From NCBI RefSeq assembly GCF_022846255.1, contig NZ_AP025682.1: 64,000 nucleotides of DNA. One strand, written 5' to 3'. Made by a program: the position numbers and the translations under genes. The DNA comes from Escherichia coli. Lineage in GTDB: Bacteria > Pseudomonadota > Gammaproteobacteria > Enterobacterales > Enterobacteriaceae. Shown in pieces: positions 1,962-31,968 of the stretch. Each line of letters begins with the position of its first letter. The stretch's first letter is position 1. Under the pieces are notes generated by a model. That model saw nothing but the letters and a program-made list of their open reading frames with translations, ran no database searches and was not told where the DNA came from.

Positions 1962-2783
1962 TTATTTTTGCGACAGTTGATCCAGCTTGTCGCGAAAACC
2001 GGTAACAGAAATGGCCCGGTTATCGGCGCGCCAGCGATCTTTCGCGGCAGGAGCCGAGCTTTGCACCCCAATTAATTGCCAGCCGTCATCGGTATGCAAC
2101 ATCAGAGGCGAACCGCTGTCACCCGGCAAGGTATCGCACTGATGCGACATCACCGACGTTTGCGCCCAGCCAGTCACTTCACAGTTTTGATGACTGTACA
2201 ACGTATCGAGATGATCTTCAGGGTAGCCCGCCTGAGTCACTTTACGACCAGCCGCTTTTAATGCGGCGGTAAGCGCGGCTTTATCTCCCTCAAATAATGG
2301 CAACGGTGTAATGCCAGAAGGGGGATTACGTAGCACAATCAAACCGAAGTCCCAGGGCGCAGCTGCGGGAGGTACAATCCAGCCATCCCCATCTGCTTTT
2401 AACCGCTTTCCCAGTGTCGGATCAACGCGGCCTTCTATGTCGTGGATCTCATAGCGCCAAAGACCTTTATTTGACACGAAACGCAGCGCTACCGCTTTAT
2501 CGGCTTTACCCTTTGGCGGCGTCAATAAACAGTGTCCTGCCGTTAATGCCAGATTGGGTGCAATCAGCGTCGCCGTACATAAATTGCCGCTGGCCGTTTC
2601 CAGTTGGCCAACCGCATCCCACGGTGATTGGGTCGTGTCATTCACTGGCACACGATCATCATGACCAAAAAACAGGGTGCTGACCTCATCGTTTGCCGAT
2701 TTGGCAACGTCTGGTTTATCTGCAAACACAAAAGCAGACGTCAAACTAATTGCACCCAACACTACAGCAATGGTTGTACGCAT
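1962..2783 (-). CDS. ydgD: secreted trypsin-like serine protease YdgD
   Basis: 273 aa ORF with N-terminal signal peptide and TAGHC-type active-site His motif. Confidence 0.85.
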
Positions 2784-2882
2784 ATCACACTCTGGTGGGT
2801 AATTATGATTATTAAAAGCAAACCCTCATAAATACTATAGACGGGACGGGATGAAAGTGGGAGTAAAATCAGATAACTACGA

Positions 2883-2966
2883 TCAGGAAAGATAAAAACG
2901 GGTGGCAATCAGTGCGCATAAAATAAGGATGATAAGAATGAACTCAAAGCGATAACGGCCCACCAT
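2883..2966 (-). CDS. ydgU: small hydrophobic protein YdgU (27 aa)
   Basis: Hand translation of minus strand: MVGRYRFEFILIILILCALIATRFYLS, preceded by GGAGGG Shine-Dalgarno; below the ORF-track length cutoff; position between ydgD and asr matches K-12. Confidence 0.6.
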   Translation of the reverse strand: MVGRYRFEFILIILILCALIATRFYLS

Positions 2967-3058
2967 ACTACCCTCCGCTAAAGGCGGTGCTAAACGTTAC
3001 CCGCTTAGCACCGTAATTTTCAGGCGCGAGGGGGCGCGCCAGCATTACTGTTGAAAAC

Positions 3059-3367
3059 TTACGCTGCGGGTTGTGCAGCAGGTTTTGCCGGTTGCTGATG
3101 GCTGTGTTTCTTGGCGTGTTTCTTCGCTGCCTGCGCTTTTTGTTCAGGAGCTTTCTGTTCAGCTTTCGCATTTTTATGATGCTTTTTAGCCGCCTGCGCT
3201 TTCTGGGCAGGTGCTGCTTTATGCTGTTTTTTATGATGTGTAGTTTTCGCCGGCGCTGCTTTGGTGGTCGTCGCAGTCGGAGCAGGTGTGGTCACAGTTT
3301 CTGCAGCAAAGGCGGCAGAAGACAGACCCATAGCAGCGGCAACAACCAGAGCTAATACTTTTTTCAT
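3059..3367 (-). CDS. asr: acid shock protein Asr
   Basis: 102 aa from [17 protein letters not shown] signal peptide; Lys/Ala/His-rich low-complexity periplasmic protein; track ORF starts 9 codons upstream. Confidence 0.9.
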
Positions 3368-3470
3368 TGTCATACCCTCAATTTGTTTTTTCATTTAACC
3401 CCACTGCGGGGCCGTTGAAATAACTATATCCCTGGGAATGGCAGACTTCCGTGAGTGGTTGGTTTCAGCG

Positions 3471-3484
3471 TGTAACGATATGTA
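3471..3484 (-). promoter_or_regulatory. RstA-box-like site upstream of asr
   Basis: Minus-strand sequence TACATATCGTTACA matches the RstA box consensus TACATNTNGTTACA as I remember it; about 105 nt upstream of the asr start codon. Confidence 0.45.
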
Positions 3485-3751
3485 CAAACGCTGAATAAAT
3501 TACAGCGTTGATAATAACGTATTGTGACTTAAGGGAAATTTAGCTACCAATAATAGTAGTCTTGATCGGGTTAACTATTTTACTACTTACAAAGCGGTAG
3601 AATAACTGCGCATCAGTAATAAATGACACATAGCAAAATGAATCCGTTTATTTGGGTACTTATAATCCTGATGACACTAGATGCGCTGCGGGAATTGGCT
3701 GGCGCTTCGTCTATTTTAGGATGGCTATTAACGTTGGTTTGAGCAGGCAAT

Positions 3752-3792
3752 AAGTCCGGACGGGTATTTACCGCAGTCCGGACTTATTTTTT
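3752..3792. terminator. stem-loop at the 3' end of ynfM; strong T-run on + strand, weaker U-tract on - strand
   Basis: 10-bp perfect stem AAGTCCGGAC/GTCCGGACTT with 14-nt loop, followed on + strand by ATTTTTT. Confidence 0.6.
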
Positions 3793-5045
3793 CAGGCGTG
3801 CAGACGATGATGCAAACGCGTCCCGACCAGCAGAGCAATGACCAGCATCAGAGCAATAAATGCGCCGACGCCGTTCCAGCCATAGTTATGCCAGAAAACA
3901 CCACCCAGCGTCCCGGCAATACTCGACCCCAGATAGTAACTGAACAGATACAGCGAGGAGGCCTGGCCTTTAGCGCGTTTTGCTCGGGGGCCGATCCAGC
4001 TGCTGGCTACTGAGTGGGCTGCGAAGAATCCGGCTGAGAAGAGTAACATTCCGGCAAAGATCAGCCACAGCGAGCTGAATAAGGTCATCAATAAACCAAA
4101 CAGCATAACCCCCGTCGAAAACAACATCACCGGACCGCGCCCATAGCGGGTGGTCATGGTTCCGGCTTTTGGTGAGCTCCATGTACCGGTCAAATAAGCC
4201 AGCGATAATAAGCCAACCACGGCCTGGCTGACATGCCAGGGGGAGAGCATCAACCGATAGCCGACGTAATTAAACAGCGTGACGAACGACCCCATCAGCA
4301 AAAAGCCTTCTGCGAACAATAACGGTAATCCCCGGTCACGCCAGTGCAGACGAAAGTTGATGAATAACGTCTTAGGGCGCAGTGAAGTCGGGCGAAAATG
4401 GCGTGATTCAGGGAGGATTTTCCAGAACATTAACGCCGAGGCCAGCGCGAAACAACCGATTGCCGCCAGCGCAATTCGCCAGTTGAAAAAGTCCGTGAAG
4501 ACACCGCTAATTAAGCGTCCGCTCATGCCGCCAATTGAGTTGCCGCTGATATACAACCCCATCGAAAAGGCCACGAAACTGGGGTGGATTTCCTCGCTAA
4601 GATAAGTCATGCCAACAGCTGCTACGCCACTTAACGAAAGCCCAATCAAGGCGCGCATAATCAAAATGCCGTGCCAGCTGGTCATCATTGTCGAAAGTAA
4701 CGTACAAATGGAGGCCAACAGTAGCGCCGTGACCATCACTGGTTTGCGACCAATGGCATCGGATAACGGGCCAGTAAACAGCAAACCGATAGCCAACATC
4801 GCCGTAGAAATGGACAGTGAAATACTACTGTTCGCGGGCGTTAAGCCAAACTCCTGCGAAAGCACCGGAAGGATAGGTTGCACACAATAGAGAAGTGCGA
4901 AGGTTGCCAGTCCGGCAGAGAACAGCGCCAGGGTGACGCGCATAAATTGCGGCGTACCGCGTTTAATAAATTGATTTGGCTGAGAAATGCTTTGCTTGTC
5001 AGTGTCGCTTGCCGGAGCGCCATCAACAGTTGTAGTACGGCTCAC
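3792..5045 (-). CDS. ynfM: MFS transporter YnfM
   Basis: 417 aa ORF, multi-TM MFS-like. Confidence 0.9.
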   Translation of the reverse strand: MSRTTTVDGAPASDTDKQSISQPNQFIKRGTPQFMRVTLALFSAGLATFALLYCVQPILPVLSQEFGLTPANSSISLSISTAMLAIGLLFTGPLSDAIGRKPVMVTALLLASICTLLSTMMTSWHGILIMRALIGLSLSGVAAVGMTYLSEEIHPSFVAFSMGLYISGNSIGGMSGRLISGVFTDFFNWRIALAAIGCFALASALMFWKILPESRHFRPTSLRPKTLFINFRLHWRDRGLPLLFAEGFLLMGSFVTLFNYVGYRLMLSPWHVSQAVVGLLSLAYLTGTWSSPKAGTMTTRYGRGPVMLFSTGVMLFGLLMTLFSSLWLIFAGMLLFSAGFFAAHSVASSWIGPRAKRAKGQASSLYLFSYYLGSSIAGTLGGVFWHNYGWNGVGAFIALMLVIALLVGTRLHHRLHA

Positions 5046-5151
5046 TTGAAATCCTTGCTAAATATGCCTGTGGTTCAGGCTTATGAATAGATTAGGAAAA
5101 TCGAATTGTTCTGTCTAATATATTAATAATCTCAAATAAGATGTTTTAAAT

Positions 5152-6045
5152 ATGAATATTGAACTTCGTCATCTGCGTTACTTTGTTGCGGTTGCAGAAG
5201 AGCTGCATTTCGGGCGCGCCGCTGCCCGCCTGAATATTTCGCAACCACCGCTAAGTCAGCAGATTCAGGCGCTGGAGCAACAAATTGGTGCCCGACTGCT
5301 GGCACGGACCAATCGCAGTGTATTGCTGACGGAAGCAGGAAAACAGTTTCTTGTAGATAGTCGGCAAATCCTGTCTATGGTGGATGATGCTGCCGCTCGC
5401 GCTGAAAGGCTGCATCAGGGCGAAGCGGGGGAGTTGCGCATTGGTTTTACTTCGTCCGCTCCTTTTATTCGGGCGGTGTCCGATACGTTATCGCTGTTTC
5501 GCCGTGATTATCCCGATGTCCATTTACAAACCCGCGAAATGAACACTCGCGAGCAAATCGCTCCGCTCATTGAAGGAACGCTGGATATGGGATTGCTGCG
5601 TAACACAGCGTTACCGGAGACGCTTGAACACGCAGTCATCGTCCATGAACCGCTTATGGCGATGATCCCGCACGATCATCCCCTAGCAAATAACCCGAGT
5701 GTAACGCTGGCTGAACTGGCGAAAGAACCCTTTGTCTTTTTTGATCCGCACGTCGGAACAGGGCTGTATGACGATATTCTCGGGCTGATGAGACGTTACA
5801 ATTTGACGCCCGTCATCACTCAGGAGGTGGGTGAGGCAATGACCATCATCGGTCTGGTTTCCGCTGGTCTGGGTGTTTCAATTTTGCCTGCGTCATTTAA
5901 ACGTGTTCAGCTCAACGAAATGCGCTGGGTGCCGATTGCTGAAGAGGATGCGGTTTCTGAAATGTGGTTGGTCTGGCCGAAACATCATGAACAAAGTCCG
6001 GCTGCGCGTAACTTTCGTATTCATCTGCTGAATGCTCTCAGGTGA
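5152..6045 (+). CDS. ynfL: LysR-family transcriptional regulator YnfL
   Basis: 297 aa, N-terminal HTH (LRYFVAVAEELHFGRAA), divergent from ynfM. Confidence 0.9.
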   Translation: MNIELRHLRYFVAVAEELHFGRAAARLNISQPPLSQQIQALEQQIGARLLARTNRSVLLTEAGKQFLVDSRQILSMVDDAAARAERLHQGEAGELRIGFTSSAPFIRAVSDTLSLFRRDYPDVHLQTREMNTREQIAPLIEGTLDMGLLRNTALPETLEHAVIVHEPLMAMIPHDHPLANNPSVTLAELAKEPFVFFDPHVGTGLYDDILGLMRRYNLTPVITQEVGEAMTIIGLVSAGLGVSILPASFKRVQLNEMRWVPIAEEDAVSEMWLVWPKHHEQSPAARNFRIHLLNALR

Positions 6046-26897: not shown

Positions 26898-28943
26898 ATG
26901 ACAACAATGAATCCTTTCCTTGTGCAAAGCACACTGCCGTATCTGGCTCCCCATTTTGATCAAATTGCCAACCATCACTATCGCCCGGCATTCGATGAGG
27001 GAATACAGCAAAAGCGGGCAGAAATTGCTGCCATCGCGCTTAACCCGCAAACACCTGATTTTAAAAATACTATTCTGGCACTGGAACAAAGCGGAGAATT
27101 ACTTACCCGCGTTACCAGCGTCTTTTTTGCGATGACTGCGGCGCATACCAATGATGAATTACAGCGTCTTGATGAACAGTTTTCCGCTGAACTGGCGGAA
27201 CTTGCGAATGATATCTATCTGAACGGGGAATTATTCGCGCGGGTAGATGCTGTCTGGCAACGCCGTGAATCCCTGGGGCTTGATAGTGAATCCATCCGCC
27301 TGGTGGAGGTGATTCATCAACGTTTTGTCCTTGCCGGAGCCAAACTTGAGCAAGCTGATAAAGCAAAATTAAAAGTACTGAATACAGAAGCTGCGACCCT
27401 GACCAGCCAGTTTAACCAGCGGTTACTGGCAGCAAATAAATCCGGCGGTCTGGTTGTGAACGATATCGCGCAGCTGGCAGGAATGAGTGAACAAGAGATT
27501 GCGCTGGCGGCAGAGGCGGCTCGCGAGAAAGGTCTGGATAACAACTGGCTGATTCCGCTGCTGAATACCACCCAGCAACCAGCGCTTGCTGAACTGCGCG
27601 ATCGCGCGACGCGTGAAAAACTGTTTACTGCGGGCTGGACGCGAGCGGAAAAAAATGATGCCAATGATACCCGCGCTATCATTCAACGTCTGGTGGAGAT
27701 CCGCGCGCAGCAGGCGAAACTGCTTGGTTTTCCTCATTATGCCGCATGGAAAATCGCCGATCAGATGGCAAAAACGCCAGAAGCAGCGCTCAACTTTATG
27801 CGGGAAATTGTTCCAGCGGCGCGTCAACGTGCGAGCGATGAATTAACCTCCATACAGGCGGTTATCGATAAGCAGCAGGGCGGGTTTAGCGCGCAGCCGT
27901 GGGACTGGGCATTTTATGCCGAGCAGGTAAGACGTGAGAAATTCGATCTCGATGAAGCGCAGCTCAAGCCTTATTTCGAATTAAACACGGTGTTGAATGA
28001 AGGCGTATTCTGGACTGCGAATCAGCTCTTCGGTATTAAGTTTGTCGAACGTTTTGATATTCCTGTCTACCATCCTGACGTTCGTGTGTGGGAAATTTTT
28101 GATCATAATGGCGTGGGGCTGGCGTTATTTTACGGTGATTTCTTCGCCCGTGATTCAAAAAGCGGCGGCGCATGGATGGGCAATTTTGTTGAGCAATCAA
28201 CGCTGAATGAAACGCACCCGGTAATTTATAACGTCTGCAATTATCAGAAACCCGCTGCCGGTGAGCCTGCGTTGTTACTCTGGGATGATGTAATAACCTT
28301 ATTCCATGAATTTGGTCATACGCTGCACGGCCTTTTTGCCCGCCAGCGTTATGCCACGCTTTCCGGCACCAACACGCCGCGTGATTTTGTCGAATTTCCG
28401 TCGCAAATCAACGAACACTGGGCAACACATCCGCAGGTATTCGCTCGCTACGCCCGGCATTATCAGAGCGGGGCCGCAATGCCTGACGAACTTCAACAGA
28501 AAATGCGTAATGCCAGCCTGTTCAATAAAGGGTATGAGATGAGCGAACTGCTTAGCGCCGCACTTCTCGATATGCGCTGGCATTGTCTGGAAGAAAACGA
28601 AGCAATGCAGGACGTCGATGATTTCGAATTGCGGGCGCTGGTGGCGGAAAATATGGATCTTCCTGCTATACCGCCACGCTATCGCAGCAGTTATTTCGCC
28701 CATATTTTTGGTGGCGGATATGCCGCAGGTTATTACGCTTATCTGTGGACGCAAATGTTGGCCGATGATGGTTACCAGTGGTTTGTTGAGCAGGGCGGAT
28801 TAACGCGTGAAAATGGGCGGCGTTTTCGCGAGGCGATTCTTTCCAGAGGTAACAGCGAAGATCTGGAACGCCTGTATCGACAATGGCGCGGTAAGGCACC
28901 TCAGATTATGCCGATGCTGCAACATCGTGGCTTGAACGTATAA
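26898..28943 (+). CDS. dcp: dipeptidyl carboxypeptidase II Dcp (M3 family)
   Basis: 681 aa from [10 protein letters not shown] with AGGAGAAG Shine-Dalgarno; HEFGH zinc motif. Confidence 0.92.
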
Positions 28944-29449
28944 ACACCACCAATGGCTGGCCTGGATTTATCGCCAGACCAGCTTCGTTATAGCAGTAAT
29001 TGCAGCAACTGGGCGAGGGCAAACTTCACCGCTAATGCGAATGCCGTTTCGCAGTCGCCAGCAAAATTACTTTTTTTGTATACTCTTCCGTTATAATAAT
29101 TTTCAAATTCAGCCGGACCAGATGATCAACATTAGCGGCAGTCTGGATAAGAAAAGCGCGCCGGCCGTCGTTCGGGTCACTCAGTTGCAGAAATAAAAAT
29201 AAATTAGCCTGATGGCCTGAACTACTGGGCCATTAGGGTATTGGGTTATGCTATTTGTCATCCTTTTAATTGCGATAATGCAGAGTTAATTTATAGAATT
29301 AAACACTTTTTTATCTGCTGATTTTGTTTTAAATCACAATGTTATCTCAGAGATGCTCATAACTCCGGATTTCTATGAAAATATTGACGTAATTTTGCTT
29401 TTCTCTCGTTAGAATAGCGCGCACAAGGAACTGTGAAAAAGGAGTGGCA

Positions 29450-30340
29450 ATGATCAAGAAGACAACGGAAATTGATGCCATCTTGTTAAATCTCAATAAG
29501 GCTATCGATGCCCACTACCAGTGGCTGGTAAGTATGTTTCACAGCGTGGTCGCGAGAGATGCCAGTAAGCCAGAAATAACGGATAACCATTCTTATGGGC
29601 TGTGCCAGTTTGGTCGGTGGATTGATCATCTGGGGCCACTCGATAACGATGAATTACCTTACGTTCGGCTAATGGATTCTGCCCATCAACATATGCATAA
29701 CTGTGGTCGGGAATTAATGCTGGCTATTGTTGAAAATCACTGGCAGGACGCGCATTTCGACGCTTTTCAGGAAGGGTTGCTTTCTTTTACTGCGGCATTA
29801 ACCGATTACAAAATTTATTTGCTGACGATCCGTAGCAGTATGGATGTTCTGACGGGATTGCCGGGTCGTCGGGTTCTTGATGAATCCTTCGATCATCAGT
29901 TACGCAATGCTGAACCTCTGAATCTTTATTTAATGTTGTTGGATATAGACCGATTTAAATTGGTTAATGATACCTACGGGCATTTAATCGGCGATGTAGT
30001 ATTACGCACCCTCGCAACTTACTTAGCCAGTTGGACGCGCGATTACGAAACGGTTTATCGCTACGGGGGCGAAGAATTTATCATTATTGTCAAAGCGACT
30101 AATGATGAAGAAGCATGTCGTGCAGGTGTCAGAATTTGCCAGTTAGTCGATAACCATGCCATCACACATTCTGAAGGGCATATCAACATTACCGTGACTG
30201 CTGGTGTGAGTCGTGCATTTCCTGAAGAGCCTCTGGATGTGGTCATTGGAAGAGCGGACAGGGCAATGTATGAGGGTAAGCAAACCGGAAGGAATCGCTG
30301 CATGTTTATTGACGAACAAAATGTGATTAACCGAGTTTAA
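29450..30340 (+). CDS. dgcZ: zinc-sensing diguanylate cyclase DgcZ (YdeH)
   Basis: 296 aa; N-terminal CZB domain, C-terminal GGDEF with GGEEF motif. Confidence 0.9.
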   Translation: MIKKTTEIDAILLNLNKAIDAHYQWLVSMFHSVVARDASKPEITDNHSYGLCQFGRWIDHLGPLDNDELPYVRLMDSAHQHMHNCGRELMLAIVENHWQDAHFDAFQEGLLSFTAALTDYKIYLLTIRSSMDVLTGLPGRRVLDESFDHQLRNAEPLNLYLMLLDIDRFKLVNDTYGHLIGDVVLRTLATYLASWTRDYETVYRYGGEEFIIIVKATNDEEACRAGVRICQLVDNHAITHSEGHINITVTAGVSRAFPEEPLDVVIGRADRAMYEGKQTGRNRCMFIDEQNVINRV

Positions 30341-30350
30341 GCTCCGTTTA
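30334..30350 (+). promoter_or_regulatory. PhoP-box-like direct repeat upstream of candidate MgrR
   Basis: aGTTTA-agctc-cGTTTA, GTTTA cores match the (T/G)GTTTA-N5-(T/G)GTTTA pattern; overlaps the dgcZ stop codon. Confidence 0.4.
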
Positions 30351-30374
30351 ACATTCATTGAGAAAACTGATGCT

Positions 30375-30483
30375 ACTGTGTCAACGATCCGTTATCAGTG
30401 CAGGAAAATGCCTGTTAGCGTAAAAGCAAAACACAAATCTATCCATGCAAGCATTCACCGCCGGTTTACTGGCGGTTTTTTTT
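30375..30483 (+). ncRNA. mgrR: candidate MgrR small RNA (5' end approximate)
   Basis: Roughly 100-nt + strand interval between a PhoP-box-like repeat and a strong intrinsic terminator; K-12 encodes the PhoP-dependent sRNA MgrR between dgcZ and mgtS (memory); 5' end not determined. Confidence 0.45.
30458..30483 (+). terminator. intrinsic terminator, 3' end of candidate MgrR
   Basis: 7-bp GC-rich stem CCGCCGG/CTGGCGG with 4-nt loop followed by T8. Confidence 0.7.
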
Positions 30484-30490
30484 CGCCGTC

Positions 30491-30531
30491 ATAAAAATCA
30501 GGCCCCTTGTACACAACTGTAACAAGGGGCC
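30491..30531 (-). terminator. intrinsic terminator after mgtS
   Basis: 10-bp perfect stem GGCCCCTTGT/ACAAGGGGCC; on minus strand followed by TGATTTTTAT. Confidence 0.6.
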
Positions 30532-30558
30532 GGTTAGGTGAGGGATTATCTCCGTTCA

Positions 30559-30654
30559 TTAGTCATCCCATTTGTGGCTGAAATACGCGGCCAGAAACCC
30601 AGAAAATAAAATTATTCCCAGTACGGCCATAAAAACATTCATATTACCCAGCAT
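30559..30654 (-). CDS. mgtS: small membrane protein MgtS (YneM), 31 aa
   Basis: Hand translation of minus strand: MLGNMNVFMAVLGIILFSGFLAAYFSHKWDD with GGAGG 6 nt upstream of ATG; recognised as MgtS; below ORF-track cutoff. Confidence 0.8.
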   Translation of the reverse strand: MLGNMNVFMAVLGIILFSGFLAAYFSHKWDD

Positions 30655-30780
30655 TATTTGCCTCCGTTTATGGTGTGGTGTGTTTCCTCGCTTACCTTAA
30701 TTTTCATCTCAATGAGAAAGATATTAGCAGAGGTAACCTAAACGAAGGCTGAATTAAATTCTTATTGTGTTCGACTTAAA

Positions 30781-31968
30781 TCAACAAAGCGCGGGCTGCC
30801 CCCACGGTCTTGCACGAATTCCTTTTAACATCAGCACCCACGCAACAACGATCACCAACGCTAAGATGATAAACAGCGAGAAAGGCGGCAGACTGGTAAG
30901 TACTATGCCACTCACTAATGGGTTAATCGCAGCACCAAGCCAGCCTAAAGACTGGGCGGAAAAATAGCTGGCTTTCATTCCTGGCGGCGCAATATGGTCA
31001 ATCAACATATACTCGCCCGGCGCATAAATGATTTCACCGACAGTAAATACCGCAGCTGACATACCCCACAATAGCAGGCTGTTGCCGGAAAAAATAAAAC
31101 CGACCAGCCCGATGACGAAACAGAGGGTGCCTGCTGTCATCAGCGCGCGGATGTTAGCCGGGTTAAGGCGGCGGCCCACGGAATATTGCAACGTAACCAC
31201 CATGGCAGCATTCACCGGAAGAACAACCGCGACCACCTTTTCGGCAAAATCACCATCAGCAATCACCATCACATATTGTGAAATGCATGAAGCAAATGCG
31301 CCGCTAACAAAAGAAGCCAGAAAGCCAGAGCAGGTAAACCACAACAGTGCTTTATCTTGTAATAAAACTTTCGGCGACCAGACACTGCCTGTTTCCGTGG
31401 CGATGATTTTCTCGCTGCGCTTTACCCAAATTTGAATGAAAAGCATGGGGAACGCGGAACAGATAGCTGCCAGCCAGAAGGGCAGATTGATGCTCTGCAT
31501 CACCAACAGCGTGCCGAGTGGCGGACCGATGGTCCAGCCAATGTTGAGCATGGTGTAGTTGATTGAGAAAATCTTCGTTTTGCTGGTGGACGAAAGATTG
31601 TCGGCAAACCAGGCTTTCAGCACGGTAGCAAAAACGGAGTAGGCGCAGTTAATAAGGGCAAAAAAGAGCACCACCAGCGTCACGTTATTCACTAAAGGAA
31701 TGGCAATAAAACCGCTAGCGAAGGCGGTAATTGCCAGTAACATATAGCGTTTCTTGTCGAACTTATCCGCCAGGATACCAAAACCGAGGCTAAAAACGAC
31801 GCCAATAGTGAGCGCAATTGTCATCGCATAACCGATTAGATCGACACTCAGGCTGTACTGGCGACTCAAGTAAATGGTCATAAACGGCAGCGTAGCGCCG
31901 CGTCCGATGGTTAATAACAACGACGAGGCAAGAAGGGCGCTGGTAGAGCGTCGTAAGGATAAGTTCAT
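30781..31968 (-). CDS. ydeE: MFS transporter YdeE
   Basis: 395 aa multi-TM ORF. Confidence 0.9.
   Translation of the reverse strand: MNLSLRRSTSALLASSLLLTIGRGATLPFMTIYLSRQYSLSVDLIGYAMTIALTIGVVFSLGFGILADKFDKKRYMLLAITAFASGFIAIPLVNNVTLVVLFFALINCAYSVFATVLKAWFADNLSSTSKTKIFSINYTMLNIGWTIGPPLGTLLVMQSINLPFWLAAICSAFPMLFIQIWVKRSEKIIATETGSVWSPKVLLQDKALLWFTCSGFLASFVSGAFASCISQYVMVIADGDFAEKVVAVVLPVNAAMVVTLQYSVGRRLNPANIRALMTAGTLCFVIGLVGFIFSGNSLLLWGMSAAVFTVGEIIYAPGEYMLIDHIAPPGMKASYFSAQSLGWLGAAINPLVSGIVLTSLPPFSLFIILALVIVVAWVLMLKGIRARPWGQPALC

Follow-up and report, generated by a model that had tools for sequence, protein, structure and literature searches.

In Escherichia coli K-12 MG1655, two genes lie between dcp and dgcZ, and the record gives the order dcp, ydeJ, ydeI, dgcZ, in agreement with the order given in the original prediction on the DNA analysed here. 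K-12 ydeJ (519 nt, 172 aa) lies on the opposite strand, and ydeI has 393 nt and encodes 130 aa. K-12 YdeJ covers positions 3-155 of 155 of the Pfam family CinA (PF02464; E = 9e-48), and K-12 YdeI, a periplasmic BOF/OB-fold stress protein, covers positions 4-103 of 103 of the Pfam family BOF (PF04076). RefSeq names the product of K-12 ydeJ (K-12 locus 2088-2606) "2-oxo-tetronate isomerase", which looks questionable in view of the full-length CinA-family domain. The regulator RcdA binds the ydeI-ydeJ spacer and controls ydeI in K-12 (PMC3535384). Our literature search returned only K-12 work on this spacer, and none of the papers found described the deletion reported here.

Here, we analysed a stretch of E. 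coli DNA of 64,000 nucleotides (the window), in which the neighbourhood of dcp and dgcZ is that of the K-12 ydfG-dcp...dgcZ-mgtS-ydeE region. The gap between the two genes is only 506 bp long (28944-29449), and the longest ORF touching it on either strand has 53 aa, so the original description of a gap of about 500 bp with no ORF of 130-170 aa was accurate. We conclude, with a probability of about 95%, that the dcp-dgcZ interval is a deletion scar left by two nested deletions, which destroyed ydeJ and then ydeI. The features of the locus are as follows.

26898-28943, plus strand: intact dcp (peptidyl-dipeptidase Dcp, 681 aa), an ORF with which the dcp genes annotated in K-12 and in strain 536 (2046 nt) align collinearly
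28955-28984, no strand assigned: retained hairpin at the convergent 3' ends of dcp and ydeJ, from folding
28988-29068, minus strand: 3' remnant of ydeJ, 81 nt, comprising the stop and the last 26 codons (aa 147-172 of 172), collinear with K-12 locus 2088-2167
29067, no strand assigned: junction of deletion 1, from blastn HSP ends and junction sequence
29068-29109, no strand assigned: scrap of the ydeJ-ydeI intergenic region, about 42 nt (K-12 locus 2643-2683), between both deletions, from alignment
29108-29110, no strand assigned: junction of deletion 2, from blastn HSP ends and junction sequence
29110-29196, plus strand: 3' remnant of ydeI, codons 103-130 and stop, 87 nt, from alignment (RefSeq start at 29107, 90 nt)
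29205-29240, plus strand: retained terminator-like hairpin of ydeI, from folding and alignment
29197-29449, plus strand: dgcZ upstream region (promoter and leader), 253 bp, outside the deletions and collinear with K-12 throughout
29450-30340, plus strand: intact dgcZ (diguanylate cyclase DgcZ, 296 aa), an ORF matching the K-12 and 536 records

Searching the 64-kb window by tblastn with the K-12 proteins located the C-terminal end of YdeJ at 28991-29122 on the minus strand (E = 4.5e-9) and that of YdeI at 29092-29193 on the plus strand (E = 2.7e-13), and neither protein had a significant match outside the interval. The DNA alignment agrees: 81 nt match the 3' end of ydeJ and 87-90 nt the 3' end of ydeI, between the same neighbours as in K-12, which is the pattern of a unitary gene loss. 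The statement that ydeI and ydeJ are not present is thus right for the intact genes and wrong for their truncated 3' ends. The degraded remnants that the original prediction named as refuting it do exist; they contradict a strict absence and yet prove the deletion reading. Both remnants have lost the start codon, the ribosome-binding site and the promoter, as in pseudogenes derived by deletion. The 26-aa ydeJ remnant has no Pfam match and is too short to hold a complete CinA domain. Of the BOF domain, only positions 69-103 are kept in the window; the 102 N-terminal codons of ydeI are deleted, which removed the signal peptide and the greater part of the OB fold. The sequence shows that this locus can produce neither YdeJ nor YdeI. 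In 536, N50, ST131 MB1159 and many other genomes, RefSeq annotates both fragments as pseudogenes ("incomplete; missing N-terminus"). One substitution in the ydeI remnant, T to G at 29184 (CAT to CAG, His128 to Gln in a dead frame), is private to the window and absent from 536, JNE120442 and K-12.

The 53-aa ORF (29035-29196, plus strand) is chimeric; it reads through the antisense ydeJ remnant and the intergenic scrap and then continues in frame into the YdeI C-terminus. It gives a weak Pfam BOF match (32 bits, model positions 69-103), and its start codon lies upstream of the sole promoter-like site in the interval (29055-29084). We rejected it as a new gene because it starts inside antisense ydeJ, lacks a signal peptide region and holds only the last third of BOF, and it is regarded as an accident of the junction.

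The breakpoints were set from blastn HSPs and from the junction sequences directly; in a MAFFT alignment of four alleles, the ydeJ remnant of the window was placed opposite ydeI sequence. By blastn, K-12 locus 1-2167, 2642-2682 and 3183-5579 correspond to window 26900-29067, 29067-29107 and 29105-31500 as three collinear blocks, while strain JNE120442, which has lost ydeJ only, matches in two blocks (locus 1-2210 and 2710-5106 to window 26900-29109 and 29105-31500). Deletion 1 comprises 475 bp relative to K-12 (K-12 locus 2168-2642), with a 1-bp T ambiguity at the junction, and took the GTG start of ydeJ, codons 1-146 and 36 bp upstream. Deletion 2 comprises 504 bp relative to the JNE120442 allele (JNE120442 locus 2211-2714), with TT microhomology and an imperfect AA[A/G]TT, and took 198 bp upstream of ydeI, including its promoter region, and ydeI codons 1-102. 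Neither junction contains IS or repeat sequence, and nothing at them points to a deletion mediated by a mobile element. With clean breakpoints that share just 1-2 bp of microhomology and carry no trace of a mobile element, both deletions are likely to have arisen by illegitimate recombination or replication slippage. Starting from an ancestor with dcp (plus), ydeJ (minus), ydeI (plus) and dgcZ (plus), as still found in K-12, the first deletion removed the 5' part of ydeJ together with its start codon and the 36 bp upstream, giving an allele with intact ydeI that is still extant. In a descendant of this allele, the second deletion then took what was left of the divergent promoter region, along with the 5' part of ydeI. 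Today the interval consists of two promoterless and startless 3' fragments separated by the 42-nt scrap, of the hairpin on either side, and of the dgcZ control region, which is intact.

The distribution of these alleles was determined in 5,426 complete E. coli genomes, 5,419 of which matched the dcp-dgcZ locus probe. The ydeJ segment removed by deletion 1 is present in 3,618 genomes and the ydeI segment removed by deletion 2 in 4,372, and since the deleted segments occur in only these genomes, a displaced copy at another site is generally absent from strains that have the deletions. Junctions were counted directly with 50-bp probes, the halves of which are too short to seed alone, so that only junction-carrying genomes are counted; long junction-spanning queries were unusable for this purpose because matches up to about 500 bp apart get joined. 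Junction 2 was found in 1,036 of the 5,426 genomes (19%), including Nissle 1917, S88 and an APEC O2:K1 strain, with nothing in the others, and junction 1 in 1,629, including strain 042. For the window allele, subtraction of the deleted-segment matches gives 1,047 genomes, and the two methods agree; for junction 1, subtraction gives 1,801 against the direct count, and the gap is probably due to SNPs near the junction that prevent seeding. Overall, both genes are kept in about 67% of the genomes (K-12 type), while the ydeJ deletion alone accounts for about 11-14% and the double deletion for 19%. The double-deletion strains 536, ST131, Nissle 1917 and S88 are, as we assume, members of phylogroup B2, and PCN033 and 042, with the ydeJ deletion only, presumably belong to phylogroup D. 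Identity between strain N50 and the window is only 97.5% over the probe, yet the remnant coordinates are the same, so a single old origin fits each junction. The double-deletion allele is neither rare nor private: it is common, is already in public annotation as two pseudogenes and is not novel. The proposal of a lineage-specific deletion holds in that a deletion took place, but two successive events occurred instead of one, and the intermediate allele lacking only ydeJ survives.

For the polarity of the change, an outgroup was sought by a degenerate-codon scan of species-representative genome contigs anchored on the zinc-site motif of DgcZ, and a single contig, NZ_JAATUR010000028.1, was returned. 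It is 85.6% identical to the window in dcp and 90.1% in dgcZ-ydeE. We use it as an outgroup Escherichia because no complete E. coli genome matches its locus at more than 95%, the best among the matches listed being 87.8%; its label, E. coli SCPM-O-B-8794, is probably wrong and the contig that of a different Escherichia species. Like the window, it has dcp and dgcZ close together, with both genes lost between them and with the ydeI terminator hairpin and the dgcZ leader conserved. Unlike the window, it has a single 1,034-bp deletion (K-12 locus 2213-3246) with breakpoints other than those of both E. coli deletions, and it keeps 125 nt of ydeJ and the last approximately 8 codons (about 28 nt) of ydeI. 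The loss in this lineage was independent. Because the outgroup has differently truncated remnants of both genes, the common ancestor had both at this site; the remnants, together with the wide spread of the CinA and BOF families, indicate that presence of ydeJ and ydeI is ancestral and their loss recurrent.

With these data, other histories of the locus can be weighed. The net size difference between the window and K-12 is 978 bp, as would be expected if a single deletion of about 980 bp had produced the window allele directly from the K-12 type, the allele with intact ydeI having arisen separately. However, the intergenic scrap comes from the middle of the missing region and is kept between the junctions, and the window and the ydeI-intact allele share an identical junction 1; for these two reasons the window allele is placed as a descendant of the intermediate allele. 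The scrap is 85% identical to K-12 and identical to JNE120442 at 41 of 42 positions. In addition, the larger number of genomes with junction 1 than with junction 2 is the nested pattern expected of two steps, and we consider a single deletion very improbable. An assembly or sequencing artefact in the window deserves hardly any consideration, as an identical junction 2 occurs in 1,036 independently finished genomes, 536, Nissle 1917 and S88 among them, and nothing speaks in its favour.

The original prediction had left the choice between a deletion here and an insertion in K-12. If K-12 and its relatives had gained ydeJ-ydeI by insertion, the window would represent the ancestral empty site, and this would agree with two observations: the named genomes that presumably belong to the basal phylogroups B2 and D are those without ydeJ, and the sole outgroup retrieved is also without intact copies. 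However, the supposedly empty site contains the in-register 3' ends of both genes, and inserted DNA cannot extend two fragments that were already in place so that complete CinA and BOF domains result. The remnants in the outgroup, one longer and one shorter and with other breakpoints, likewise show that its ancestor had both genes, and the K-12 segment is not bordered by ends of IS elements or repeats. Insertion thus proved to be the wrong alternative and is extremely improbable, whereas deletion, with the 3' ends of both genes kept at syntenic positions in the window and with differently truncated ends in the outgroup, is the right one.

Outside the two deletions, the control elements of the locus were retained. 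The hairpin at 28955-28984 folds with -15.8 kcal/mol on the plus strand (z -2.45) and -21.6 kcal/mol on the minus strand (z -3.26) and is probably a bidirectional terminator for dcp and ydeJ; it has no T tract and was not called by the terminator consensus scan. The hairpin at 29205-29240 folds with -21 kcal/mol (z -3.77), none of 200 shuffles being as stable, is identical in all aligned E. coli alleles and is recognisable in the outgroup. From this hairpin to the dgcZ start, the window is collinear with K-12 apart from a few SNPs and the loss of 1 bp between 29355 and 29356. The missing base pair would lie about 94 bp before the dgcZ ATG; 536 lacks it too, but K-12 and JNE120442 do not. Since the 253 bp upstream of dgcZ are collinear with K-12, dgcZ control is expected to be unchanged, and dcp and dgcZ would be unaffected. 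The promoter and terminator consensus scan of the interval gave nothing above shuffle expectation. Rfam contained nothing credible for 28944-29449, the sole match being a togavirus element that scores 15 bits where the gathering score is 120. Downstream, Rfam STnc560, an Hfq-binding sRNA, was strongly matched at 30352-30565 on the plus strand (281.9 bits; gathering score 55); the match starts 12 nt after the dgcZ stop and is antisense to the small ORFs mgtT (30455-30559, minus) and mgtS (30559-30654, minus).

The expected consequence of the two deletions is the simple loss of YdeJ and YdeI. The RcdA-bound ydeI-ydeJ spacer of K-12 (PMC3535384) is almost entirely gone in the window. About 19% of the complete E. 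coli genomes, among them the lineages of 536, ST131, Nissle 1917 and S88, are without functional YdeI and YdeJ, and a further 11-14% are without YdeJ; because these strains lack the functional genes, K-12 results on ydeI and ydeJ, for example the RcdA control of ydeI (PMC3535384), do not transfer to them. In a large clade rich in extraintestinal-pathogen strains, the double loss has apparently reached fixation, and the three alleles can serve as a simple nested lineage marker. At least three separate clean deletions have occurred at ydeJ-ydeI in Escherichia (475 bp, 504 bp and, in the outgroup, 1,034 bp), in addition to sporadic IS events. For example, ydeI and two-thirds of dgcZ, from its 5' end, have given way to an IS1 in E. 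coli 99_0288 (locus 3294-4294), and an IS4-like element splits ydeJ in E. coli KMi006 (locus 2914-4770), both as independent disruptions. That a sister Escherichia species lost ydeJ and ydeI by a deletion of its own is a hint that the two genes may be dispensable or costly. That the gene pair is a recurrent target of loss through selection against YdeI and/or YdeJ in some niches, over neutral decay, is a tentative idea which we regard as rather unlikely. The significance of the finding is small and lies mainly in bookkeeping, and the repeated independent loss of the gene pair, with its bearing on dispensability or selection, is the only mildly interesting angle.

Compared with the described alleles, the window is closest in arrangement to E. 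coli 536 (NC_008253.1), in which the remnants are ECP_RS27570 and ECP_RS26855; the arrangement and the remnant coordinates are the same, and the identity is 99.5% over 1,601 bp (probe, window 28400-30000). ST131 MB1159 and N50 carry the same 81-nt ydeJ remnant and 90-nt ydeI remnant as the window and 536. The intermediate allele of JNE120442, PCN033 and 042 has a ydeJ truncation and a junction 1 identical to those of the window, but, unlike in the window, ydeI and its promoter region are intact. In the alignment, the dcp-ydeJ-remnant side of the JNE120442 allele has variants of the window and 536, and its ydeI-3'/dgcZ-upstream side has variants of K-12, an apparent mosaic that points either to recombination with a boundary close to the scar or to a lineage of intermediate position. 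K-12 MG1655 has the same flanking genes, hairpins and dgcZ upstream region at about 97% identity, and differs in having the 475-bp and 504-bp segments missing from the window, with which it retains intact ydeJ (172 aa, CinA) and ydeI (130 aa, BOF).
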